Origin: a virus
Taxonomy: Duplodnaviria > Caudoviricetes
Reading direction: 5' to 3' (one strand)
Length of the DNA: 64,000 nt
IMG/VR virus record: IMGVR_UViG_3300013232_000197
Location: 1-64,000 of that record
Part shown: in pieces, positions 8,661 to 32,114 of the stretch
Position numbering within the stretch: position 1 is the stretch's first letter
How the letters are laid out: each line of letters opens with the position of its first letter
The notes under the pieces: model-generated
What the model saw: the letters and a program-made list of their open reading frames with translations, nothing else
Told to the model about the DNA's origin: nothing
Databases searched by the model: none
Translations under genes and position numbers: made by a program

Positions 8661-9626
8661 TTACTTCAACTTGGACTTCAACAAGTCTTTCACCATAACC
8701 GCAGTTTTCTTGGTGATTGCTTTGCGGACCATATCGTTGTCCACAATTTCACCTTTCGCTTCTCGGGTTACGTCTTCAACCATTGCTTTAAGAATGATGG
8801 GCATTTTATCCATCCCATATCCTGGAATCTTGTCCAAGACATGCTCCAGACGTGTCATCGTGACCCACTCATTGGCAATCTTATCGGCATCTGCCATCAC
8901 TTGCATTTTGGCAGGATCGGCAACTACTCGGGGCGATGCTGTCTCACGAAAGTCATCACCTTTATGCTTACAGATAATACGGGAACCTGTACTCGTTGTC
9001 AAGTCAATAAGCGGACGAAGTACAACGCCTTCACGTTTCTTTGGATTGGCAATTCGACCCCCAAATTTGCCGTATGGTTCGACTACAGTTCCCGAAGGAC
9101 AGTTGAAATCAGCACCCTCTGGGACAATCATACTTATTCCATTGCGAATTGCCTGTACAGAAGGAGCGTCACGTTGGGCGTCAATCTCTTTGAGATCAGT
9201 TGTGATTTTGACCCAAGGAACGAAGTCAATATTTAGCGATTCGCAGAATGTTTGTGCCTCTGGCACACTGAGCCAGTTGGATCCATCCAAACAAACATCA
9301 AAAGCAATAAATTTTAAGTCGGGTCCATACGTATGGCTCATTCCCTGTTGTTTACCACCGTAAGCTTCGCCATAGATGGTTACGGCCCTGGTTCCATATC
9401 CCATATCTATTAGTTTGGCTTTGATAGCGTCGGCATCGAACAGTGCTACGAATCTCTCATGGCTTTCTCCACCGGAGGAGAATTTCAATTCAGAAGGTCC
9501 CGTCAAAGACATTGCTGCCCATGAAACATTAGCACTAGTGCCGTGGATTTTCTCCATAGCATAGCACTCCTTAAACATAAGGATTGTTTGATTCTTGTAA
9601 AGGTTTTCGATGTGGAGGTAGCCGAT
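8661..9626 (-). CDS. RNA ligase, Rnl2-like
   Basis: EKIHGTS motif I, YGEAYG, FIAFDV, REGVVLRP, ICKHK; N-terminal GYLHIENLY lies upstream of the called ATG 9578, so the start may be ATC 9626. Confidence 0.85.
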   Translation of the reverse strand: MGYLHIENLYKNQTILMFKECYAMEKIHGTSANVSWAAMSLTGPSELKFSSGGESHERFVALFDADAIKAKLIDMGYGTRAVTIYGEAYGGKQQGMSHTYGPDLKFIAFDVCLDGSNWLSVPEAQTFCESLNIDFVPWVKITTDLKEIDAQRDAPSVQAIRNGISMIVPEGADFNCPSGTVVEPYGKFGGRIANPKKREGVVLRPLIDLTTSTGSRIICKHKGDDFRETASPRVVADPAKMQVMADADKIANEWVTMTRLEHVLDKIPGYGMDKMPIILKAMVEDVTREAKGEIVDNDMVRKAITKKTAVMVKDLLKSKLK

Positions 9627-10339: not shown

Positions 10340-11383
10340 TTAATCTTTTTCTTTGTAATTCTCGTTGAGCACTTTACCGGACCAAGACTTGTTGAGTGCT
10401 GTGCTGACAAATCCTTCCTTTGGACGAACGACAATACCTTCCGCTGGACCATCCGTAGGGTATTTTTGTTCGTTTGCCAATTTGATCAAACCATCCAAAG
10501 TGTAACTAAAGATATTGCCCTCTTCAATCAAGGGTACCATAGGAATGTTATACGTGGTGGTAAAGGATACCAGTTTCTCATAACTCAAGTAATAACGAGA
10601 TTTAATGTCAAAGACATTGAATACACGCAGTTCTAGTTCCTTCAACCCCAAGTTATTCTTCTGAATACCAGGCCCAACAATTTCGCCTTGAATAGCAATG
10701 TCCATATCAGGAAATGCAGTACGAAGGGCTTGTTCAATGTTGTACTTGCGAGCCATCTTCCAGAATCCATTTGATTCACTCTCTTTCAAATGAATACGAC
10801 GACTGCATACGCCAAACTCACCATTTCTGATAAAGAATGTGCCGCTACTTCCATCTTCTTTGCGAGTGATGTAATATGAATGGCTATGCAACTCGGGCAC
10901 AGCATCGGGATAAGAACGAAGGTTGTCTTCGTCCGTCACAATTAAGAATCCAGGAATGGTGCCGAAAGCTTGCCCAGCAAGTTCTGCGGGCATTGGTTTT
11001 TCGTAATGCTTTACACCAAGAACATTGGTAACATCGTCGCCCGTTTCCCATTGTGCTTGAGTTTCTACGGGATTGTCTTTTCCATCGTTGGCCATAATAC
11101 TTTTGCCCATTGGTAAAATACTCAATGGAAAGCAGATACCAGCCGATGCTTCGCCACGAAGGCGAATGGGCTTGATGCGAAAGTGTTTGTTGCGAAGAAA
11201 CTCAAATGTGGGTTGCTCTGGAAGTATGGTGTCAATGCAAATATACACACAAAAGTCGCCAACTTTGAATTCGTCACGTTTGGCTACAACAGTCCATCCC
11301 AAGACTTCTACGAGGTCGAGGGCATCGGCGTTCGGATGTTTACGAACACTTTTGATCGTTTGAATGGTCGCTAGATTATTCAT
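10340..11383 (-). CDS. RNA ligase, DRB0094/Rnl family
   Basis: LATIQTI...HPNADAL, IRLRGEASAG, TRKEDGSSGT, IQGEIVGPGIQKN, EGIVVR. Confidence 0.9.
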   Translation of the reverse strand: MNNLATIQTIKSVRKHPNADALDLVEVLGWTVVAKRDEFKVGDFCVYICIDTILPEQPTFEFLRNKHFRIKPIRLRGEASAGICFPLSILPMGKSIMANDGKDNPVETQAQWETGDDVTNVLGVKHYEKPMPAELAGQAFGTIPGFLIVTDEDNLRSYPDAVPELHSHSYYITRKEDGSSGTFFIRNGEFGVCSRRIHLKESESNGFWKMARKYNIEQALRTAFPDMDIAIQGEIVGPGIQKNNLGLKELELRVFNVFDIKSRYYLSYEKLVSFTTTYNIPMVPLIEEGNIFSYTLDGLIKLANEQKYPTDGPAEGIVVRPKEGFVSTALNKSWSGKVLNENYKEKD

Positions 11384-14744: not shown

Positions 14745-15710
14745 TCAGTAAGGAGGAGGCATTTTGGAAAGTTTTCCGCCGAAGAAATCTTCGGCATTGA
14801 CATAATCAAATCCACACCTAGCGGCGAAGGTATCATCCGAAGTCATATCACCAACCATAATACAATGCGAAGGACGTAGTTTGTATTTCTCAATGAACCA
14901 CGCTCCAATACCTGGATGGGGTTTCCTGCAATAACAAGATACTGGAGGAATGCGGTGAGGACAAAATTGATAATCAATCTTTACACCGAGCAGACGATTG
15001 GTTTCCTCAAAGCAAGTGACTACCGCTTCTCGTGGTGTCCCCCTGGCAATACCTGACTGGTTGGACGCTCCCAGTAAGATATATCCTTTGTCACGGTATT
15101 CTTTCAACTTTTCGGCACGGCCAGGAAGCATTTGAATATCACTAATGTCAATAGGATACTTTTGTTTGCCGACGCTAAGGCGTAAGGTACCATCGTAATC
15201 TACAATCAGTGCCTTATTGATGTAATCTGGTCCCCATACTCGTCTGAAAGGTACTTCTTCAATGGAAGCAAATCCTTCAGCGGTAGTAGGTTTCTGAAAC
15301 TCTTTCCTGTAATGAAATAGAGCTACAGGAGGAAACAGGTTGGGGTCATTGATCTTTTTGAAATCTTCCGGTTGAAGTAGTTTACCTGTTTTACGTACCA
15401 TACGAAGGCACGCATTCAACTGAGCATCTTCAAAAGAAGTAGTCAGATGGACACAGCGAATGGGCACTTTATTGGTCTTGGCAGCACGAACAATGGATGC
15501 TCGGCTTTTCACCGATGGGTACGTGTTATCAAGGACAAGAGAGCCGGAGCCATTACGAAGCATGGCTTCGGCTTCTTCAGCTAAATCGTCAATACCCTTC
15601 CCAGCAAGGTCCCGGTTCAGACGGGTATAATCTTGCTTAACAAAAGTTTCAACAAGGGTACTTTTGCCGGCGGCATTGTACCCCATTATGATGACGATCT
15701 CTTTGCTCAC
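14745..15710 (-). CDS. Polynucleotide kinase/3'-phosphatase (AAA_33 + HAD-IIIA)
   Basis: GYNAAGKST, VLDNT, then DYDGTL, SNQSG, CRKP.PG, MVGD; GTG start 15710 preferred over 15905. Confidence 0.88.
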   Translation of the reverse strand: MSKEIVIIMGYNAAGKSTLVETFVKQDYTRLNRDLAGKGIDDLAEEAEAMLRNGSGSLVLDNTYPSVKSRASIVRAAKTNKVPIRCVHLTTSFEDAQLNACLRMVRKTGKLLQPEDFKKINDPNLFPPVALFHYRKEFQKPTTAEGFASIEEVPFRRVWGPDYINKALIVDYDGTLRLSVGKQKYPIDISDIQMLPGRAEKLKEYRDKGYILLGASNQSGIARGTPREAVVTCFEETNRLLGVKIDYQFCPHRIPPVSCYCRKPHPGIGAWFIEKYKLRPSHCIMVGDMTSDDTFAARCGFDYVNAEDFFGGKLSKMPPPY

Positions 15711-15711
15711 C

Positions 15712-16200
15712 TTACGACTTGATGTTATAAGTGTTGAGAAACAACTTACGGCGAACAATCCAAACATCACTGTGATCGGTCTGGTTGCGGCAGATGAAAT
15801 CGCCAGCAGAACCCCGCTGGACATTTTTTTCAAGTCCCACGGTTTCACCCCACTGTCCGATAATGTAGAATCCGCCGATATCGGTTTGACTCTCAGGGAC
15901 TTCAATCACGTTAACGGCATTGTCGGGGAGCGGTTCACACACCATCCAGCCATCATTGTCAATGGCTTTGACGGCATATTTGGCGAGCAACTTCTTGGGC
16001 ATTTGCTGCCACGTATCTCCCGCTTCACCGACACAGATAACCACGCCATCACCCAATGGTTCCTTGCCTTCAAGGGTATCCACGAGGAACTTGTTAGTCA
16101 CACTTCGGTCAACCAAAAGGCTGATTAGGGGTTTCGCTTTGATCGGACGAGTTTTGCTGGCAATCTTCCAGCCCGTTAGGTTTTTGGTTTCAATTTTCAT
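15712..16200 (-). CDS. PGDYG-like repeat-domain protein
   Basis: Two TLEG/GD.I..G..GD.W-like units. Confidence 0.55.
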   Translation of the reverse strand: MKIETKNLTGWKIASKTRPIKAKPLISLLVDRSVTNKFLVDTLEGKEPLGDGVVICVGEAGDTWQQMPKKLLAKYAVKAIDNDGWMVCEPLPDNAVNVIEVPESQTDIGGFYIIGQWGETVGLEKNVQRGSAGDFICRNQTDHSDVWIVRRKLFLNTYNIKS

Positions 16201-17518: not shown

Positions 17519-17749
17519 TTATACAATCGTAAACATTTCGTATTTGTATTCTTTGGACGCCCGTTCAACAAAATAATCAAATGTTTCCATATCACTTGAA
17601 TGAGCATTGAACTCACTGATTTCATCCTCGGTAATTCCGAAGAGCTTATGGTAATCGTTTGGCTCAATATATTTTGCATTGGGATTGTTTATTTTAATCC
17701 CATGAAATCCAAAGGTATCGTTGAATACAATCCAGTAGGTCATTTGCAT
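17519..17749 (-). CDS. Hypothetical protein
   Basis: 76-aa ORF overlapping the PARP stop. Confidence 0.6.
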   Translation of the reverse strand: MQMTYWIVFNDTFGFHGIKINNPNAKYIEPNDYHKLFGITEDEISEFNAHSSDMETFDYFVERASKEYKYEMFTIV

Positions 17750-19011
17750 TCCAAGAGGTATCGGATATTGACTTGTTTGTTGCGATAAACGATCAGTTCA
17801 TCATTATGCAAACTAGAACCTGCTTTGGCCCAGACGCTATCATAACCGCTGGGAGCGCCCGAATAAAGTGAGCTACGAGTTTCGTGAATCTTACCCATAG
17901 CAAAGTCGCAGATGAATAGCCAGCCAGCATCACCGCTATTACCTTGACCCCAACGGCCATAAGTGTAACCAAGTGACTTAGTACTGTTAATCGCACCATA
18001 GATACCATTACCAAACATCTTGCCAGCAATGGCTGCGGTGCTTGGAGGACTGACTTTCAATCCACTCTTGAGAATGGACAGACAGTTGGCTTGTGACGTG
18101 CCGTGGAATACTTCTTTGATGGGGGACATGCTACGCTCAAAAGCGTGGTCCATATCGTGAATCGTCACCTTGAAGATTTCACGCACTCGCACGTTATCAT
18201 AGCCATGCATACGTTTCTTGGACGTTTCAAAGTAGCGGTCCAAGCGGGCACGCTCTGCCATGTCCGTAAGTACATCCAAATCCACTTGGAAGACTTGCTC
18301 TTGCTTCTTAGCGGGAGTACCGGGAGTAACTGGAGCGGCAGTCTGAGTCGCTTGATAGGACGATTCCAATGAGTCAATCAAGTCGTTCTGCTTTTGGATA
18401 GCATTGTCATCGGGGATAACCGACTGAGTGTTGAAACGGCCCATGCCAAGAGACTGAGGAATGAGACGGAGATAGAGAGACAAAAGGCGGTCTGCGTCAG
18501 TCCCAAACTTGCCATTGCGGACAAGGGGAGCCAGTTTAGCAAGCAAATCACGAGCCTCGGTCAATCCTTCCATTGTGACAATGCCGAGAGGGGTGGCGAA
18601 CAATCCCGTGGTGGAGTTGTACGTAATCTGCGTGTTGGCAGTAATCTTGTGGACATTCGCTTGAACGAAGCGGGTAATTAGACGTTCCAACGTAGGGTTG
18701 GTAGATTTGATAAGCTGAGTACGGGCGATGGTATGAAGGTCACGGTCTTTGACCACATTACCAGATGCCAGAGAAGCGGTAGCTGCACCTACGGTTTTCA
18801 GTTCGGTGTACCCCTTCTTCAACTTTTCACGAAATTTCTTTTGGAGGTAGTCATCCCCACCTTGCCATTCACCAGACTCGCCAGTATTCCCGACTCGTCC
18901 CCAACTAGCCTTTACAGTGCCATCGTCAAACAATTGACCAATCCACCATTTGTTGTTGTTATCACTGACCTCGGTTTTGATCAGTTTGACTTCTTTGATT
19001 AGAGTTGCCAT
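17740..19011 (-). CDS. WGR-domain poly(ADP-ribose) polymerase-like protein
   Basis: SWGRVG (WGR), helical domain, FHGT, GKMFGNGIY, KSLGY, DELIVY catalytic H-Y-E triad. Confidence 0.9.
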   Translation of the reverse strand: MATLIKEVKLIKTEVSDNNNKWWIGQLFDDGTVKASWGRVGNTGESGEWQGGDDYLQKKFREKLKKGYTELKTVGAATASLASGNVVKDRDLHTIARTQLIKSTNPTLERLITRFVQANVHKITANTQITYNSTTGLFATPLGIVTMEGLTEARDLLAKLAPLVRNGKFGTDADRLLSLYLRLIPQSLGMGRFNTQSVIPDDNAIQKQNDLIDSLESSYQATQTAAPVTPGTPAKKQEQVFQVDLDVLTDMAERARLDRYFETSKKRMHGYDNVRVREIFKVTIHDMDHAFERSMSPIKEVFHGTSQANCLSILKSGLKVSPPSTAAIAGKMFGNGIYGAINSTKSLGYTYGRWGQGNSGDAGWLFICDFAMGKIHETRSSLYSGAPSGYDSVWAKAGSSLHNDELIVYRNKQVNIRYLLECK

Positions 19012-19772: not shown

Positions 19773-19989
19773 GGGGTCAACTTGCTTCCGTTACGTCGTT
19801 CTTACGATGGCACAAGAGAGTTTTGAATTCTGATGTTTGCACTTTGACTTTTGAGATATTGAGAGTTTAAGTTTGAACTACTGTTGGGAAACAGCAGGTA
19901 TCTTTCTCTTTATCGTTAAAATAAATCCTTTGAAGGGATTAAAGATGCGCCGAGTGTAGAGGAACGATTTCACTTCCACAAGTTGCCCC
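19773..19989 (-). ncRNA. Structured RNA element 3' of the DIP1984-like gene
   Basis: Terminal arms GGGGCAACTTGT / GCAAGTTGACCCC pair; internal hairpins; A-rich repeat tract. Confidence 0.7.
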
Positions 19990-19996
19990 AAATTTA

Positions 19997-20437
19997 TTAC
20001 ACCGTTTTTGTTGCGTTGTAAACATCCACTTGGTCTTGGAGGGCATTGATTTCCTCCTGAAGCTTCACGACCAAGGCATCACACTTTTCCTGATTGATAC
20101 AGGAATTCCAAGTGTAAGTAAGTTTTTCTTGGTTGTAACCTACCGAAGTAATTTCTTCACCTTCCCGCTTATCCAGACCTTGAATGAATGAAATACGTGC
20201 TTTCAATTCGGCCATACGCTCCAGCATTGGATAGATACCGATATTGGCAACGGTGATCTTACCCTTGAGTTCTCCCAACTGGGTGGATAACTCAAGAATC
20301 TTGGCCCACACGGCGTCACGGTCCACTTTGGACACGTTATCGTTTCGGCGAGCATTCTCCCGCTGAAGGATTTGCTGTTGACGGACGAGTTCACCGGCGA
20401 GACGATTCTTTTGTTTAAGTGCTTGTGCGAGATTCAT
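19997..20437 (-). CDS. DIP1984/DUF6847-like coiled-coil protein
   Basis: MNLAQALKQKNRL...LK.KI..AN...LAELK...LQ..ID.YN pattern. Confidence 0.75.
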   Translation of the reverse strand: MNLAQALKQKNRLAGELVRQQQILQRENARRNDNVSKVDRDAVWAKILELSTQLGELKGKITVANIGIYPMLERMAELKARISFIQGLDKREGEEITSVGYNQEKLTYTWNSCINQEKCDALVVKLQEEINALQDQVDVYNATKTV

Positions 20438-20513: not shown

Positions 20514-21344
20514 TTACCATGCATCATCGTCATCTTTATGATCTGTAGGTATATCTGGTGTTATCATTTGAATGAGAGATGTTTGTGTAGCTGCACAGTC
20601 AATACGAGTTTTTGACATAGCAAAGTAATCTTTACTCATTTCAACCCCAACGAAACTTCTTCCCAGTCTTACGGCAACATCGCCACTAGTACCACTTCCC
20701 ATAAAAGGGTCACAGATAACATCATCTTTATAGGAAAAGAGCTTGATGCACCGTATTGGTAATTCGGGTGGGAAAGCAGCAGGATGATCGGAGTTGGTTT
20801 GAGGATTCATGCTCCACAGATTTTTGATATAGGTCATGAAATCTTTGCCACTAATGGTAGATTCTCCTTTTGTTTTTCGTTTCCATTTGGTTTTGTAAAA
20901 GACCAAAATACATTCATTGGGGTCAATAATAAATGGAGCGGACGCAGACCGCCAAGACCCCCAACAAGTTTTATTGCTTCCCATCTTTTGCCATATGATA
21001 GTACGATAGTACTTGAATCCTGCGGCTTGACAAATCTCTATGTAATCTGCTGCTACAGGATAGTTGATGTCATCTTCTCCCTTAACTTTATTCAAGTGTT
21101 CGGGGGTAACTGAAAATGGGATATTGATACAAAGACGCCCATCATCGGCCATATAAAGAAACATTTTGGCAATCCATTTTTTACACCACGTCAAATATTG
21201 GGCATAAGTCATTGTATCTACATGCTTATCATATTCAATGCCTACGTTGTACGGTGGTGAGGTAACGACCAAGTTAATCGGTGGCAGTCCATCGAAGTTT
21301 GCTTTCAGGATGTCGTCGTTGATAAGTTTTATCATTCGTCCCAT
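20514..21344 (-). CDS. DNA methyltransferase, N4-C/N6-A beta class
   Basis: TSPPY, HPAAFP, DPFMGSGT. Confidence 0.92.
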   Translation of the reverse strand: MGRMIKLINDDILKANFDGLPPINLVVTSPPYNVGIEYDKHVDTMTYAQYLTWCKKWIAKMFLYMADDGRLCINIPFSVTPEHLNKVKGEDDINYPVAADYIEICQAAGFKYYRTIIWQKMGSNKTCWGSWRSASAPFIIDPNECILVFYKTKWKRKTKGESTISGKDFMTYIKNLWSMNPQTNSDHPAAFPPELPIRCIKLFSYKDDVICDPFMGSGTSGDVAVRLGRSFVGVEMSKDYFAMSKTRIDCAATQTSLIQMITPDIPTDHKDDDDAW

Positions 21345-21422: not shown

Positions 21423-22220
21423 ATGAATAACAATGCAATCTACTTGGGCGACACGCTCCAACTGTTGAAGTGGTTTCCTGAAAACTTTTTTGACATCACC
21501 GTTACTTCACCGCCGTACAATAAACAGAAGGCAAAGGGTAAACTGGTGAAAGAAGTAAAGTACCTCAAGGCAAATGATGCTCAAGATGAAACGGCTTATC
21601 AAGCTGAACAGGTTGAAGTGTTAGATCAACTTTTCAGAGTTACCAAACCTGGTGGACATATCTTTTACAATCATAAACTGCGTTGGTTCGATGGTGTTAT
21701 GGTGCATCCTTTGACGTGGGTATCCAAATCGTTGTGGGACATTCGCCAAGAAATCATTTGGGATAGAATCATTGCGGGTAATCTGCGAGGATGGCGTTTC
21801 TGGCAAGTTGAGGAACGTATCTATTGGATGCAAAAGGGAATTACCAAAGGAGAAGAATTAGCGAGTAAGCACGCCAAAATGACTTCTATCTGGAGAATGT
21901 TTCCTGAGAATAAGTTTCCCAATCATCCAGCACCATTTCCAGTTGAATTGCCCACTCGTTGTATCTATAGCATTGCGAATGACAAAAATGGATTAAATAT
22001 TTTGGACCCATATTGTGGTACTGGTTCAACACTAGTCGCTGCCAAAACACTTGGGCATAACTATGTCGGGATTGATTGCTCTCAGGAATATATCGATCAA
22101 GCAAAAGCGAGATTGCAGAGTGCTAGTGGAGCGGTGGAAGCATTGCATGAAGTAGCACTTCATACTGTAAACAAAACGTATAAGGAACGGAAGGCAGCGA
22201 AAAAACTTCGAGAAAAATGA
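21423..22220 (+). CDS. DNA methyltransferase, N4-C/N6-A beta class
   Basis: TSPPY, HPAPFP, DPYCGTGS. Confidence 0.92.
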   Translation: MNNNAIYLGDTLQLLKWFPENFFDITVTSPPYNKQKAKGKLVKEVKYLKANDAQDETAYQAEQVEVLDQLFRVTKPGGHIFYNHKLRWFDGVMVHPLTWVSKSLWDIRQEIIWDRIIAGNLRGWRFWQVEERIYWMQKGITKGEELASKHAKMTSIWRMFPENKFPNHPAPFPVELPTRCIYSIANDKNGLNILDPYCGTGSTLVAAKTLGHNYVGIDCSQEYIDQAKARLQSASGAVEALHEVALHTVNKTYKERKAAKKLREK

Positions 22221-23802: not shown

Positions 23803-25362
23803 ATGAAGAACACTCGTACTGCAACTCGTAAAGCAACTCAGTTTGTCCCTATCTCCACTCCTGCCAATCCCTTCGTGAAGGCAATGCAGGTTCAATCTAA
23901 CTATGGTTTGACCGAGAAGGGTGCCCTCACCAATCGCAGCACTTTGAATGAAGTGTTGGACTTCTTTGGTGCTGGTGGAGCTATTCGTACCCGTTCAGAT
24001 GCGGACGTTATCGCTCTTTTCTCCAAGGCATTCGCTCAGGACCGTCTTTTGGCCACCAAGATTCTGTTTTATTTCCGTGATGTCCGTCAGGGACAAGGAG
24101 AGCGTAAGACCTTCCGCACTTTGATCAAGTGGCTTGCTCAAAACTATACTGATGTGGTTCGTAGGAACCTCGAAAACATCGCTTTCTATGGTCGCTATGA
24201 CGACATGTACGCCCTTATGGGTACTCCCCTTGAGGCAGAAGTGTTTGCTCTGTTTGCAACTCAGTTGAAGGCCGACCTTCGCAACATGAAGAAGGGAGAA
24301 AGTGTATCTTTGCTCGCCAAGTGGTTGAAGTCTGAGAATACTTCTTCTCCTGAGTCTCGTGCCTTGGGTTACAAGACCCGTAAGGCATTGGAGTTGACGC
24401 CGAAGCGTTATCGTAAGATTCTGTCGGCACTCCGTAAGCATATTGATGTTCTTGAAGTCAAGATGTGTTCCAACGAGTGGGCCAGCATTAACTTTGAGAA
24501 GGTACCTTCCAAGGCATCTCTCAATTACCGCAAGGCTTTTGGTAAGCACGACCAAGAGCGTTATGCTGCCTATCTCAAGTCAGTTGAGAAGGGCGATGCT
24601 AAGATCCAGGCGGGGGCAGTATATCCTTACGAAATCCTTCGTGCCATCATTGGAAAAAGTTCGTGGGGTCTCAGTGCTGTGTCCGTGGATCCACAAGCAG
24701 CCTTGGCCGCAGACCTTATGTGGAAGGCAATGCCTAACTGGCTTGCTGGAAATGAACACTATGGGCTTGTCATCGCCGACGTGTCGGGTTCTATGTTCAC
24801 CAATGACATGCTCCCAATCTTGGTGTCGGTATCTCTTGCAATGTATTTTGCTGAGCGCAATGTAGGTCCTTTCAAGGACTTCTGGATGAATTTCAGTGGC
24901 TCGCCCACGTTCCAGAAGTTGGTTGGTAACAACCTCCTTGAAAAGTATAACAACATGGATAAGCGCAACTGGTCCGGTACGACTAACCTCCAGTCGGCCT
25001 TTGACCTTATCCTTTCAACCGCAGTACAAAACAAGGTTCCTCAGAAGGAAATGCCTTCGTGTTTGTATATTGTTTCGGACATGGAGTTTGATCAAGCTTG
25101 CGAAAGCAACAGCAAGACCAACTTCGATGTTATGAAGCGTAAGTTTGAGCGTTATGGATACGAACTGCCTCGGGTAGTTTGGTGGAACGTCGCTTCTCGC
25201 AATGACAACTTCCCAATTCGTGCAGACGAAAACGGAACTGCATTGGTATCGGGTGCTTCACCAAGCATCCTCAAGTTTTTGCTCAGTGCGAAGAGCTTCA
25301 GTCCAATGGACATCGTTTACGAGACGGTTAATAGCCCTCGTTACGAGCGTGTCGTTGTGTAA
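23803..25362 (+). CDS. Ro60-like TROVE + vWA protein (DUF2828-type)
   Basis: TEKGA....ST....LDFF, FYFRDVR.GQGER..FR, YGRYDD, AKWL, DVSGSM MIDAS, SDMEFD, WWNV. Confidence 0.88.
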   Translation: MKNTRTATRKATQFVPISTPANPFVKAMQVQSNYGLTEKGALTNRSTLNEVLDFFGAGGAIRTRSDADVIALFSKAFAQDRLLATKILFYFRDVRQGQGERKTFRTLIKWLAQNYTDVVRRNLENIAFYGRYDDMYALMGTPLEAEVFALFATQLKADLRNMKKGESVSLLAKWLKSENTSSPESRALGYKTRKALELTPKRYRKILSALRKHIDVLEVKMCSNEWASINFEKVPSKASLNYRKAFGKHDQERYAAYLKSVEKGDAKIQAGAVYPYEILRAIIGKSSWGLSAVSVDPQAALAADLMWKAMPNWLAGNEHYGLVIADVSGSMFTNDMLPILVSVSLAMYFAERNVGPFKDFWMNFSGSPTFQKLVGNNLLEKYNNMDKRNWSGTTNLQSAFDLILSTAVQNKVPQKEMPSCLYIVSDMEFDQACESNSKTNFDVMKRKFERYGYELPRVVWWNVASRNDNFPIRADENGTALVSGASPSILKFLLSAKSFSPMDIVYETVNSPRYERVVV

Positions 25363-25485: not shown

Positions 25486-26793
25486 ATGAATTCACGCAAT
25501 CCAAACACGGCCAAAACATTGGCCAAAAAATACTCATTGGCTACTTCGTCTAAACGAGCACATTCTGTCTTTGTGGGCAGTGTGCCAACCGAAATAGTCA
25601 ACGACATTGTAAACGCAACTCTTTTTCATGCTTATGAGAAGTTGAATCAGAAAGTTCGGGAGCAATGGTTACGAACAAAGAGGGTTCCTCGGGAGTATGA
25701 GGAACTTATTCGGCTGAAACAGCCGGGAAGAAAACGATTTCCAATGAATTTTGAAACGGATAGCATAAAGGGTGTCAATCCCCAACTATTGGCGGAATGG
25801 AAGAACAAAGTGGTGTGCATGGACTGCGTTGAAGGTATGAGGCAACTGCCCGAGGCATGTACCGATTTAGTTGTATTTTCTCCACCATACGATGCTTTGC
25901 GGACATATGAAGGGAAGCCAGAATTCGACCTCCATCGCACGGGAGAGCAAGTGTACCGCATTCTTAAAGATGGTGGTATGTGTGCTATGGTCATTCAAGA
26001 CCAGACCAAGGATTTTGGAAAATCCATGACCAGCTTCAAGACTGCGGTAGATTGGGTTGAACGTTTTGGATTCAAACTTTTTGAATGCGTTATCTATCAT
26101 AAGAATGGCACCGAGGGAGCGTGGTGGAAGAATAGGTTTCGGGTTGACCACGAGTACATCTTTCTCTTTTTGAAGGGCGCACGTCCACTCTATTTCAATA
26201 AAGAGCCGTTGAAGATTCTGAGCAAGCATGGTGGAAAGGTCATGAGTGGTTTCGCTACTCGCAAAACCAACGGGAAAACTAACAAGTCTATCACCAAGAT
26301 GATTAACCCAACCAAGTGTCGTGGAACGGTGTGGGACTATATGTGTGCAGGCGACAAGAATAAAATCAAACGACAACATCCCGCCCCGTTTCCGGACAAA
26401 ATTCCCTATGACTTGATTCAATGTTTCTGCCCCGAAGGTGGATTGGTAATTGACCCATATATGGGAAGCGGATCAACCGCTGTGGCAGCGATAAAGCTTA
26501 ATAAGTCATTTATGGGGTTTGACATATCTCAGAACTACATTACTGAGATTTCCGAAAAGAGAATTGCCGAGGCATACGCTCAGTTGAAGGAACCGCTCGC
26601 CATCTCTCCGGTAATGGATGATGCCGATGCATTGACTGCCAAAGCGGGTGGCATCTGCCAAACAGTCATTGACCTTATGGACAGCAATCTCACAGAAGAC
26701 GAGAAGAAATCTATACTTAAACAGTTTGAAACTTTAACAAAAGAAACCTTAATTCAAATCAATGATAACTCAAACACAAATTCTAGCGAGTAG
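25486..26793 (+). CDS. DNA methyltransferase, beta class, with N- and C-terminal extensions
   Basis: FSPPY, HPAPFP, DPYMGSGS; TAG stop. Confidence 0.9.
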   Translation: MNSRNPNTAKTLAKKYSLATSSKRAHSVFVGSVPTEIVNDIVNATLFHAYEKLNQKVREQWLRTKRVPREYEELIRLKQPGRKRFPMNFETDSIKGVNPQLLAEWKNKVVCMDCVEGMRQLPEACTDLVVFSPPYDALRTYEGKPEFDLHRTGEQVYRILKDGGMCAMVIQDQTKDFGKSMTSFKTAVDWVERFGFKLFECVIYHKNGTEGAWWKNRFRVDHEYIFLFLKGARPLYFNKEPLKILSKHGGKVMSGFATRKTNGKTNKSITKMINPTKCRGTVWDYMCAGDKNKIKRQHPAPFPDKIPYDLIQCFCPEGGLVIDPYMGSGSTAVAAIKLNKSFMGFDISQNYITEISEKRIAEAYAQLKEPLAISPVMDDADALTAKAGGICQTVIDLMDSNLTEDEKKSILKQFETLTKETLIQINDNSNTNSSE

Positions 26794-28391: not shown

Positions 28392-29063
28392 ATGAAGGAA
28401 TATTCTAAAACCTGTCCGCTTTGCAAACATAAGCAAGTGTATTCAGATGAATATCATTTGAAAAGGGCAATAAATACCAATGCTTTATGTGTTAATTGTT
28501 CTCGTCACTTACCATCGAAAAAGAAGCAAAATTTAAGTGGTAATGTCTATGGACACTTGAAAGTTATTGTTTTAGACCACATCAAAAATGGACATCAATA
28601 TTGGAAATGTAAATGTGATTGTGGAACTGAAACTGTAGTTAAACATTCTCATCTTACAGGTCACACGGTCAGAACATGTGGGTGTAGTCATTTAGTATTA
28701 CAGGATAAGCATCCACATTGGAAAGGATATAAGGAAATATCTGGTGCTTATTTCAGTGTTGTGAAACGAAGTGCAAAAAAGAGAAATCTTCCATTTGATT
28801 TGACTATCGAAGAAATGTGGAGTATTTTTGAAAAGCAAAATCGAAGATGTGCATTGACTGGCGAATTACTCGAATTCAACAAATGTTTGCGAAGTACTAA
28901 CGGAACCGCATCATTGGATAGAATAGATAGTTCCAAGGGATATACCATTGGCAATGTTCAATGGGTGCATAAGTTCATAAATACTATGAAACAGGATTTA
29001 ACAGAAAAAGAATTTGCGAGATATTGCCAAATGGTTGTTGATTTCCGAAAGGATTTATTATGA
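28392..29063 (+). CDS. Homing endonuclease-like protein (HNH/His-Cys type)
   Basis: WKCKCDCG, SLDRIDSSKGY..GNVQWV...N.MK. Confidence 0.85.
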   Translation: MKEYSKTCPLCKHKQVYSDEYHLKRAINTNALCVNCSRHLPSKKKQNLSGNVYGHLKVIVLDHIKNGHQYWKCKCDCGTETVVKHSHLTGHTVRTCGCSHLVLQDKHPHWKGYKEISGAYFSVVKRSAKKRNLPFDLTIEEMWSIFEKQNRRCALTGELLEFNKCLRSTNGTASLDRIDSSKGYTIGNVQWVHKFINTMKQDLTEKEFARYCQMVVDFRKDLL

Positions 29064-29791
29064 AGCCACAACTTATCATATTACTGCGCCACGGACAATC
29101 ACAGGGCAACGTGGACCGAAACATTTACCAAACGCTTCCTGATTATGCTTTGCAGTTGACCGAACTTGGGCAACAACAAGCAGAAGAGGCGGGGTCCAAA
29201 ATCCACTCTATCATTGGATTCCCACATCAATCCATTCAGTTCTATGTCTCTCCCTTCTGGCGCACTCGTCAGACTTACCTTGCTATCAAAAAGCAGCTTT
29301 CTTCCAGTAAGGTTAGATATTATGAAGACCCTCGCTTGCGAGAACAAGAGTGGAGCCGCTCGGTATCTCGTCCAGTGGATGAAGCAGAACGTGATAGTTA
29401 TGGTCATTTCTACTATCGTTTCAATGGCGGAGAATCCTGTGCGGATACCTTTGATCGGGTGAGTGATTTCATGGGCACAATGTACCGTGATTTCAAGAAG
29501 AAAGAGTTTCCTCGCAATGCCATTGTGGTAACACACGGAATGACGATGCGCCTGTTTATCATGCGATGGTTTCATTGCTCAGTGGAAGAGTTTGAATCGT
29601 GGGCCAATCCAAAGAACTGTGAGTTTTTTGTATTGCAACTTCAAGAGGGTGAAAAGTATGAGTTGATGACTCCGTTGCGAAAACACGACATCAAACATCC
29701 CTATCAGTTTCCTTTCAATGGAAATGCTGAACATTTTCCATTCACTCACAAACTGCCTTATGAAAACAAAGACCTCAAGACAGACGAATAA
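29060..29791 (+). CDS. Histidine phosphatase (phosphoglycerate mutase family)
   Basis: RHGQS, SPFWRTRQT, LREQEW, GGES, THG. Confidence 0.92.
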   Translation: MKPQLIILLRHGQSQGNVDRNIYQTLPDYALQLTELGQQQAEEAGSKIHSIIGFPHQSIQFYVSPFWRTRQTYLAIKKQLSSSKVRYYEDPRLREQEWSRSVSRPVDEAERDSYGHFYYRFNGGESCADTFDRVSDFMGTMYRDFKKKEFPRNAIVVTHGMTMRLFIMRWFHCSVEEFESWANPKNCEFFVLQLQEGEKYELMTPLRKHDIKHPYQFPFNGNAEHFPFTHKLPYENKDLKTDE

Positions 29792-31036: not shown

Positions 31037-31100
31037 GATGTTAGAGACTTGATAAAATAAGGTCTTGACAAGTTGGCCTTCGTAGTTTAGAATGTGTGCC

Positions 31101-32114
31101 ATGATTAAGACAGATTGGTATCAGGTTCTTGAAGTTAATCCCCGAGCTAGACCCGAAGTGATTACTGCGGCGTACCATGCTCTGATGAAACAACATCATC
31201 CCGACGTTGACCACGCTACGGTTGGTGTTGTTGCTCGTGATCTCAATGAAGCCCACGATACTTTGACTGACCCTCGCAAGCGTAAGGAGTTTGACCGAGA
31301 GCGTAGTCCGGGTGCTGGCAAGATGATTGGGCCGTACAAGGTACAGGAAATCATTGCCGAAGGCGGATTTGGACGTACCTACAAAGCACAGCATTCCATT
31401 CTCAAAGAGTTGGTTTGCATCAAAGACTGCTCCAATGTTTCTCTCGCCGACACTGGAATGCTTATTGAAGAGTGTAAAGTACTGTGGGATTTGCGTCATT
31501 ATGCCCTTCCTGCTATGCGTGATTTGATACAGTTAGATGACGGTCGGGTGCTGCTTGTTATGAGCTATATTCCCGGTCTAACTTTGGAAAAGGAAGTCAA
31601 GCGAGTCGGTGCATTGGAGCCAGAAACCGTTGCTTGGATTACTGAGCGTATTCTGAATGCTCTTAACTATATCCATCGCCACGGTGTCATTCACGGAGAT
31701 TTGAAGCCCCAGAATATCATTGTGCAAGAAGATCGGCACATGGCGGTCTTGGTGGATTTTGGTCTTTCCTTGGTCAAGCCTTCAAGTGCTTCCGAAGCAA
31801 AAGGATTTACTCCTTACTTTGCCCCTCCCGAAGAGATTGCGGGCAGACCGCTCATTCCTGAGTCTGATTACTACAGTCTTGGAATGACGATGATTTATGC
31901 TTTATCGGGTGGTCCCGAGTACGTAGAGCGAAAGCAAGTACCCAGTGATGTCCCCGATGAACTTTGTGCTTTCATTAAGCGATTGATTGCACGAGATGTA
32001 AACTCCAGACCTCAGTATGGCAAAGAGGATCTTTGTGATACTATTGTGGAGTTGCGAAAGAAAGTGTTTGGACGCCATCGTTCAGGCATGAAACCCATCG
32101 CTGGAGTTAGTTAA
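31101..32114 (+). CDS. DnaJ J-domain + Ser/Thr protein kinase fusion
   Basis: DWYQVLEV...HHPD...LNEAHDTL.DP..R..FD; GEGGFG-like loop, VCIK, HGDLKPQN, DFG, APPE. Confidence 0.92.
   Translation: MIKTDWYQVLEVNPRARPEVITAAYHALMKQHHPDVDHATVGVVARDLNEAHDTLTDPRKRKEFDRERSPGAGKMIGPYKVQEIIAEGGFGRTYKAQHSILKELVCIKDCSNVSLADTGMLIEECKVLWDLRHYALPAMRDLIQLDDGRVLLVMSYIPGLTLEKEVKRVGALEPETVAWITERILNALNYIHRHGVIHGDLKPQNIIVQEDRHMAVLVDFGLSLVKPSSASEAKGFTPYFAPPEEIAGRPLIPESDYYSLGMTMIYALSGGPEYVERKQVPSDVPDELCAFIKRLIARDVNSRPQYGKEDLCDTIVELRKKVFGRHRSGMKPIAGVS

Follow-up and report, generated by a model that had tools for sequence, protein, structure and literature searches.

The window considered here is a stretch of 64,000 nucleotides (nt), the first 64 kb of the 81-kb IMG/VR record IMGVR_UViG_3300013232_000197. 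Because CheckV puts the completeness of this record at 23%, its source is a phage of several hundred kb; contigs bearing relatives of the locus described below reach 369 kb. On the minus strand of the window, a gene for a protein of 146 amino acids (aa) with the fold of DIP1984 is followed by a structured non-coding RNA of about 220 nt, and this in turn by a small open reading frame (ORF) (Table 1). The RNA is closed by pairing of its two ends and carries an array of seven-nucleotide units, referred to here as heptads. It represents a new family, conserved from phages to bacteria and matched by no Rfam family, and its genomic pairing with the DIP1984-fold protein gene is obligate. The pair is frequently placed in operons of RtcR, RtcB and RtcA, a context that is newly described here.

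Table 1. Positions in the window of the gene-RNA module, the parts of the RNA, neighbouring genes and a recurrent 9-mer
Feature	Position	Strand	Evidence
Sigma-70-type promoter (TTGACA, 17 nt, TAGAGT with TG) of the unit protein gene - RNA - small ORF	20495-20467	minus	promoter scan
146-aa DIP1984-fold protein, remote DUF6847	20437-19997	minus	ORF list, AlphaFold, structure searches
Structured non-coding RNA, about 220 nt (whole R1 match)	19991-19771	minus	R1 189 bits, E 4e-37
Closing rod, 5' strand: P1 (19989-19978), GGAA internal loop, 2-bp P1b	19989-19972	minus	11/13 P1 pairs and both P1b pairs change on both sides
P2, P2b, P2c, 5' strands (partners at 19814-19796)	19967-19946	minus	minimum free energy fold; architecture common to most homologues
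P3 hairpin, sequence variable	19940-19924	minus	hairpin here in nearly every homologue despite differing sequences
Near-invariant purine-rich segment (CGAnAAAGAGAAAGAU), in part P5 5' strand	19915-19900	minus	invariant columns; P5 pair counts
P4 hairpin	19897-19878	minus	5/5 pairs change on both sides
Array of 8-9 heptad units (U-Y-A-R-R-a-N); first three overlap P5 3' strand, last five to six are the single-stranded core	19877-19815	minus	spacing statistics, logo
Closing rod, 3' strand: GUA of loop-E-like internal loop, P1b, GGAA loop, P1	19794-19773	minus	pair counts; GUA and GGAA near-invariant in alignments
63-aa basic Cys/His-rich ORF	19763-19572	minus	ATG 8-10 nt past the RNA; kept in main phage clade only
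WGR-PARP protein, syntenic neighbour	17740-19011	minus	Pfam; synteny
Pnkp-like kinase with HAD/PNK3P phosphatase (RNA-end healing)	14745-15824	minus	Pfam; syntenic in L014
RNA ligase family (PF09414) gene	10340-11383	minus	84 bits
Second RNA ligase family (PF09414) gene	8661-9578	minus	47 bits
DUF2828/DUF7788 protein, phrog_850 'RNA-binding protein'	23803-25362	plus	domain and phrog matches
9-mer ATATTTATA	1619, 10312 (-), 13311, 28379, 45385 (-), 52279	mixed	window count

The protein gene and the RNA behind it

The 146-aa ORF terminates in TAA TAA, with its stop codon at 19999-19997. An AlphaFold model of the product (pLDDT 88) consists of a helix, a long helix, a beta-hairpin and a further helix, and the structure ranked first by Foldseek is 3kdq_A (probability 1.0, TM 0.54). 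The same PDB entry, 3KDQ, which is DIP1984 of Corynebacterium diphtheriae, also ranks first in a wide VIA-align search, with 140 of 146 residues aligned, a root-mean-square deviation of 6.2 and a Z of 10.5, a modest value given the helical nature of the protein. It is the sole full-length match, the other structures covering the first helical hairpin only, and it shares with the 146-aa protein both length and order of helices and beta-hairpin. A first-pass annotation, made from the DNA letters without database searches, had called the protein DIP1984-like, and the fold bears this out.

By sequence, the relationship to the DIP1984 family (DUF6847; PF20935, NF038048, 3KDQ; often labelled 'septicolysin') is remote, and the window protein lies far under both curated cut-offs. 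NF038048 scores it at 11.2 bits (E 0.3) against a cut-off of 70 bits, and a Pfam scan at E 0.01, PF20935 included, finds no match. Of 25 close relatives, 5 are matched by PF20935, with a best E of 0.007, and the NF038048 score rises to 34.6 bits (E 2e-8; below the 70-bit cut-off) among more distant members of the phage family. In the ESM Atlas the protein sits amid mostly viral clusters, some of them with PF20935 and one called 'putative septicolysin'. Invariant residues are concentrated in a basic N-terminal helix and a C-terminal LQDxIDxxN motif. A literature search on DIP1984, DUF6847, DUF2828, septicolysin and 3KDQ returned no publication giving a function or an RNA partner. At one related locus (L008) the gene is present as two tandem paralogues (1976-2413 and 2501-2938; 53% and 62% identity to the window protein), followed by a single RNA.

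For the RNA, a structural alignment of 28 distinct homologous sequences was begun from the purine-rich motif and then carried to a full alignment, and a covariance model for the heptad-repeat RNA, R1, was built. R1 finds one copy only in the 81-kb record; a motif match at 26169, considered as a second copy, was rejected, having no R1 support. The sequence features named in the first-pass annotation are all present where it had placed them. Its closing arms do pair, the 5' arm (19989-19978) lying 7 nt past the stop codon and the 3' arm at 19785-19773, each flanked by GGAAG, and the hairpins now termed P3 and P4 are also present. The one exception, in structure, is a third hairpin, TCGT-AAGA-ACGA, which found no support; its bases pair over a long range with 19967-19956 as P2 and P2b. 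The closed structure that it had proposed is real. A 232-nt stretch folds with a minimum free energy of -54.1 kcal/mol (z -2.9), a value that 1 of 200 shuffles equals, and the comparative data are much stronger.

Covariation downstream of homologues had been set beforehand as a check, and a conserved element is present there with compensatory changes far above those of shuffles. Across the 28 homologues, and with P5 included among the helices, 90.6% of cells pair, compared with 77.7% in shuffles, and 118 cells show double changes where shuffles give an expectation of 40 (0 of 500 shuffles reach 118). When the helix partner is slid as a control, pairing falls to 38-48%. RNAalifold recovers P1, the 2-bp P1b and P4, and 18 of 21 predicted pairs are maintained through double changes. 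The internal loops of the rod, GGAA/GGAA and GAAA/GUA, are near-invariant, and the latter, by its sequence, looks like a loop-E/bulged-G motif. When the two segments of the P2 region are co-folded across homologues, 13.6 pairs form between the strands, compared with 8.7 for shuffles (mean z -2.8), while P5 joins 19914-19905 with 19864-19855 and has one pair that covaries as UA/CG/GU. Two further pairings were considered: a pseudoknot of the invariant AAAGA with a 3' CUCUUU, of which the 5' side never varies, and a local hairpin near the last heptad (P6), which was dropped at barely above shuffles (4.4 vs 3.9 bp). An independent alignment of 15 intergenic regions from Opitutae folds to the same rod, hairpins and heptad tract. 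The RNA is shown by these comparisons to be a long rod, in which P1, the GA-rich and loop-E-like loops and P2 join both ends, and which ends at a junction with two hairpins and the array of 8-9 units.

The suggestion that this is not a simple terminator was likewise sound. A scan for intrinsic terminators (a short G+C-rich hairpin with a 3-8-nt loop and a T run) finds none on the minus strand at the end of the RNA, and the stem ahead of the U-rich run is a long-range helix that spans about 190 nt, unlike a terminator hairpin. An Rfam search, also foreseen as a check, matches no described family: at the gathering threshold the whole window yields a single match, a tRNA elsewhere, and at E up to 10 the RNA region yields two chance-level matches only, both on the opposite strand. 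Bacterial and distant versions of the RNA give tRNAs and chance-level matches only with Rfam 15. A tRNA or transfer-messenger RNA reading of the GGGG...CCCC ends was discarded, as ARAGORN finds none here and P1, at 12-13 bp, is no acceptor stem. In ToxIN, tandem repeats of about 36 nt are placed upstream of the endoribonuclease toxin gene; a type III toxin-antitoxin RNA (ToxI-like) was therefore ruled out, with units here of 7 nt and downstream of the protein gene.

Within the array, successive U-Y-A-R words are separated by 7 nt in 118 cases, by 8 nt in 36, by 6 nt in 13 and by 14 nt in 30, the last representing one degenerate unit that is skipped, and the longest run of heptads averages 4.9 units, compared with 1.2 in shuffles. 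About eight repeats had been counted at the outset, and the array has 8-9; their spacing of 6-9 nt gave way to a period of 7 nt. Similarly, the tract had been described as apparently unpaired, which holds for its last five to six units and fails for the first, which take in the 3' strand of P5. Behind the four-base word, units have a purine at position 5 in 83% and A at position 6 in 62%, with position 7 free. The last five or six units are the best-conserved part of the RNA in distant relatives. Other clades hold the 7-nt period with a changed word (UUAAAAG, UGUAAAN or GCAAGNN), so that UCAA, UUAA, UGUA and GCAA all occur as clade words. Such variation of the word among clades is more easily reconciled with a reader that is self-encoded and co-evolves than with a host factor that is conserved. 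A Rho-binding (rut) site was also considered and dropped because some clades have C-poor UGUA units.

Conserved linkage and the RNA-repair neighbourhood

Relatives of the locus were sought widely. A profile search of 1.8 billion representatives gave 1450 family members (cluster representatives at 50% identity), and more than 300 metagenome relatives of the 146-aa protein have 70-78% identity to it; loci were fetched around 11 viral and 52 metagenome homologues. Among GenBank phages, a search by locus DNA found no match, and a search by protein found one, the unannotated 595-kb record LR756511 (locus L069). Bacterial genomes scanned with a profile of the close clade gave no match; a profile of distant family members gave 63 loci, in Opitutae and other Verrucomicrobiota, Lentisphaerae/Victivallales, Kiritimatiellia, Planctomycetota, Armatimonadota, Flagellimonas and one metagenome-assembled genome of Eubacteriales. 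A plasmid search using one distant family member found no match.

In 44 phage or metagenome loci, R1 gives one match per locus, always downstream of the gene and on its strand. At the loci with no R1 match the sequence ends too near the gene, except in L011/L012, L013 and L062, where a closing stem and heptads with a different word can be seen by eye. Some loci have one or two small ORFs separating the gene from the RNA, with gaps of up to 1108 nt. The main clade has a syntenic block of methylase - gene - RNA - small ORF - PARP, which alone proves little. More telling are family members at E 1e-35 to 1e-21 (about 30% protein identity), whose loci have no neighbour in common with the window. 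Most of these distant loci have a gene-free gap of about 160-245 nt behind the gene, and R1 matches lie in several of the gaps (35-56 bits in L066-L068, 25 bits in L072); L074 has a further gene directly adjoining the DIP1984-like gene, with the end of the contig close behind. The RNA is likewise present by the DIP1984-like gene of the 595-kb phage LR756511. As for bacteria, R1 matches directly behind the gene in about 15 of the 63 loci, and in 37 of 60 the periodicity downstream is strongest at a lag of 7. Since the RNA accompanies the gene where no other neighbour is common, and in bacteria as well, the gene-RNA pair is a conserved unit, and the linkage exceeds what synteny within one phage clade would give.

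Between gene and RNA, LR756511 has a lysine-rich ORF of about 28 aa with KKxP-type repeats (L069:3490-3575).

The functional context missed by the first-pass annotation is RNA repair, represented in bacteria by RtcB, RtcA and RtcR and in the phage by RNA ligases and Pnkp. Of the 63 bacterial loci, 19 have RtcB and 4 have RtcA (23 in all) as the gene that comes next on the strand of the pair. A divergent RtcR lies upstream of the pair in one Lentisphaerae and one Kiritimatiellia locus (L096 and L078), and a sigma-54 promoter motif is found 53-231 nt upstream of the DIP-like gene in 11 loci, with a background of 1 match per 392 kb. In the phage, the module is within 5-12 kb of two RNA-ligase-family genes and of the Pnkp-like, WGR-PARP and DUF2828/phrog_850 genes, and a third PF09414 ligase gene lies at 64 kb of the record. 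tRNA genes stand beside the module in L013, L069 and L075, those of L069 being 2-3 kb downstream. RNA-repair sets that counter attacks of the host on tRNA are a known feature of jumbo phages (PMC7824862).

Four Opitutae loci (L129, L136, L121 and L108) have, instead of RtcR, a sigma-70-family gene (regions 2-4) on the same strand and about 500-1400 nt upstream of the DIP-like gene, which suggests a different control of the same RtcB-linked operon. Geminisphaera and Nibricoccus have two copies of the locus each.

A candidate ribonucleoprotein and the alternatives to it

The phage promoter is a strong one, and its arrangement, TTGACA with an extended -10, is kept upstream of the gene in most main-clade loci, and further promoters come after the small ORF. 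Without a promoter of its own, the RNA would be made within the transcript of the gene, and a single mRNA with gene and RNA suits a particle of many proteins per RNA. Heptad-like words in the leader of the protein gene are not conserved and were set aside. The 63-aa ORF has three invariant Cys and a PEERLL..IFGEGRF motif; it was considered as a third partner and discarded, having no family match and no fold match and being absent in distant loci.

On balance, it is probable that gene and RNA form one module, which yields a protein-RNA particle of an RNA-damage response in which several copies of the DIP1984-fold protein read the heptads. Gene and RNA would be co-transcribed early from a host-type promoter, and each U-Y-A-R unit of the array would be occupied by one copy or one dimer of the protein, so that several copies would assemble with the RNA into a defined ribonucleoprotein (RNP), with the conserved internal loops of the rod as a nucleation site or second binding site, perhaps. 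From the gene neighbourhood, the particle is predicted to act in the RNA-damage response upstream of, or together with, the RNA-sealing enzymes. The bacterial pair would be the first cistron pair of RtcR/sigma-54 rtcB or rtcA operons, where Salmonella has Ro60 (Rsr) and Y RNAs, and the phage pair would support the RNA-repair enzymes that the phage itself encodes (RNA ligases, Pnkp) against RNA-cutting defences of the host.

The pattern of the array is reminiscent of the hut and trp leaders of Bacillus, which are read by HutP and TRAP, respectively. In these leaders, a word of 3-4 nt recurs at a fixed short period with unconserved spacers; HutP, for instance, reads XAG with 4-nt spacers, making 7 nt (PMC2425495). 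The heptad array has the same properties (period 7, positions 1-4 conserved, positions 5-7 variable), and such a pattern is expected when each subunit of a symmetric oligomer reads one unit. The folds appear unrelated; no HutP or TRAP fold is among the matches listed in the two structure searches, and the model of the 146-aa monomer is a helical rod with a beta-hairpin. HutP and TRAP also act on leader RNAs to control termination, whereas here there are 8-9 units with another word in a large structured scaffold, and the protein gene is upstream of its presumed target.

With respect to gene order, the closest parallel is that of Ro60 and its Y RNAs (YrlA/YrlB, Yrn1). The Salmonella operon has the layout rtcR / rsr-yrlBA-rtcBA. 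Here, too, a protein gene has an adjacent non-coding RNA gene on the same strand (the heptad RNA of about 220 nt), the RNA is closed by end pairing and has conserved internal loops, and the pair occurs in phages as well; that the bacterial pair heads an RtcR/sigma-54 rtcB/rtcA operon is a likeness to the Salmonella locus and not to the Ro60/Y RNA family as a whole. The systems differ in that the protein here is small, helical and of DIP1984 fold, with no TROVE/vWA ring, and in that the heptad RNA has no tRNA-like domain, Y RNA signature or Rfam match, and possesses an array that is absent in Y RNAs. More generally, the genes of Rsr (Ro60) and Y RNA adjoin, with Y RNAs within 4 kb of the Ro60 gene and on the same strand (PMC4201824).

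A bolder extension, offered tentatively and with more doubt than confidence, is that the DIP1984-fold protein and the heptad RNA constitute a second, Ro/Y-independent RNP platform of the RNA-damage response in PVC-group and other bacteria and in giant phages. How many protein copies assemble, and in what geometry, would be dictated by the RNA; broken RNAs would be captured by the particle, or it would gate repair by RtcB/RtcA (in phages, by Rnl/Pnkp); and the 7-nt units might be anticodon-loop-sized bait or a splint for cleaved tRNAs.

Several observations weigh against the existence of such a particle. We infer contact between protein and RNA from gene order only, and the 146-aa protein is near neutral overall, with no recognised RNA-binding domain found in family scans. 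Part of the array is paired in P5, and the free units may thus be fewer than 8-9. The link to Rtc genes is frequent and not universal, as 40 of the 63 bacterial loci have other genes downstream (AAA ATPases, RecA, unknowns), and RtcB was not found in the phage record, which is only 23% complete. Finally, in nearly all loci, and whatever the next gene is, a U-rich spacer and a start codon follow within 6-12 nt of P1, an arrangement that fits a role in cis too. The spacer and ATG could represent a weak termination or processing point, or merely tight packing.

This last observation bears on the idea that the RNA is a cis-regulator of its own operon, to which we give a low probability. Here, the protein or another single-strand binder would coat the heptads cooperatively and control termination at P1 and the U-rich tail, or translation of the gene 6-12 nt further on (rtcB/rtcA in bacteria, the small ORF here). 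The fixed short distance to the next ATG over a U-rich spacer speaks for it, as does the fact that in bacteria the RNA is the leader of rtcB/rtcA, and there is a precedent in T4 gp32, which reads UUAAA repeats beside a folded nucleation site (PMC535899). The gp32 operator, a pseudoknot with a UUAAA/UAAA tract that is bound cooperatively, is similar in that a folded element is joined to successive U(U/C)AAA-type words in a single strand rich in A. It differs in that it overlaps its own ribosome-binding site upstream of gene 32, whereas the array here is inside a 220-nt RNA downstream of the gene, and the partner here is no OB-fold single-strand binder. Against a cis-regulator, the heptads are 60-100 nt from the start codon and enclosed by P1/P2, which keeps them clear of the initiation region; clades differ in the gene downstream, with no relationship among these genes, whereas the one upstream is constant; and an RNA of 220 nt, with non-canonical loops under strong conservation, is large for an attenuator. 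Moreover, phage genomes are normally tightly packed, and most genes here have no Shine-Dalgarno (SD) sequence, a loose SD-like motif being found upstream of 15 of the 62 window ORFs of at least 120 aa.

It is improbable that the RNA is a decoy or sponge independent of the upstream protein, in which the heptads absorb a host factor or an RNA-cutting defence enzyme such as an anticodon nuclease. The unit does have the length of an anticodon loop and its layout of U, three variable bases, a purine and A, consistent with the preferences at positions 5 and 6; UCAA/UUAA/UCAG and UGUA can be read as U33 plus Leu or Tyr anticodons, and tRNA-repair enzymes and tRNA genes are in the neighbourhood. The units, however, are outside stem-loops, the leading U is lost in Gemmatales (GCAAG units) and position 7 has no pyrimidine preference. 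The word also varies among clades where the presumed host targets are conserved, and a decoy leaves the invariable linkage with the protein gene and the presence in bacterial repair operons unexplained.

It is highly unlikely that, in the manner of a Y RNA, the RNA instead partners the DUF2828/DUF7788 (phrog_850 'RNA-binding') protein, whose gene is 3.8 kb away. Such a gene is near the module in the window, L033 and L057, Y RNAs lie at up to 4 kb from their Ro60 gene, and the closing stem from both ends and the conserved internal loops are Y-RNA-like. The gene is on the opposite strand, though, whereas Y RNAs are on the strand of Ro60, and at distant phage and bacterial loci the RNA accompanies the DIP-like gene, with DUF2828 absent over the sequence examined. 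The Y_RNA and YrlA models of Rfam give no match at E up to 10 or at the gathering threshold, nor in the bacterial and distant versions, and there is no tRNA-like domain. A TROVE gene, adjacent and on the same strand, was not found in the phage record, the TROVE model having no match in this partial record.

There is next to no probability that a functional RNA is absent and that the region is merely a spacer between genes, made up of low-complexity A-rich DNA and a stem like that of a terminator: the U-rich run past P1 resembles a terminator tail and A-rich sequence is common in phage intergenic DNA, but more than 18 pairs with compensatory changes, conservation in phages and bacteria alike, a position-specific 7-nt periodicity far over shuffles and the empty terminator scan contradict it, and indels that are not multiples of three, with no ORF, show that the region is not coding either.

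Were the particle of DIP1984-fold protein and heptad RNA to be real, the widespread DUF6847/DIP1984 family, mislabelled 'septicolysin', would gain a function and an RNA partner, and phage and bacterial genomes a new large RNA family. A dedicated particle at the head of rtcB/rtcA operons, instead of Ro60/Y RNA, would make the targets and substrate choice of Rtc repair testable in cultured bacteria. For phage biology, it would represent an early-expressed RNP, probably aiding survival of giant phages under RNA-cutting defences of the host.

Other features of the window

The start of the small ORF behind the RNA has no SD sequence, which was dropped as a special feature because most genes here lack one. 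The phage and its host probably lean little on SD pairing, and the early promoters look like classical sigma-70 promoters. The 9-mer ATATTTATA is present in 6 copies in the window where 0.76 are expected, and 0 of 100 shuffles reach 6. Several copies lie 3-8 nt ahead of start codons (for example those of genes starting at 10307-, 13327+, 28392+ and 52291+), and the 9-mer may be a phage-specific promoter that yields near-leaderless mRNAs.

A tRNA with the anticodon CUA is encoded at 7063-7137 (-) and is of the amber-suppressor type (tRNA-Pyl according to ARAGORN; 66 bits with the Rfam tRNA model), so that TAG may be recoded in part of the phage's genes. Three N6/N4 DNA methyltransferase genes are found within 6 kb around the module, at 20514-21344 (-), 21423-22220 (+) and 25486-26793 (+), the first of which is syntenic with the module in many relatives. 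Further along, the gene at 31092-32114 (+) encodes an N-terminal DnaJ domain fused to a Ser/Thr protein kinase domain, and a gene of the histidine phosphatase family is present at 29060-29791.

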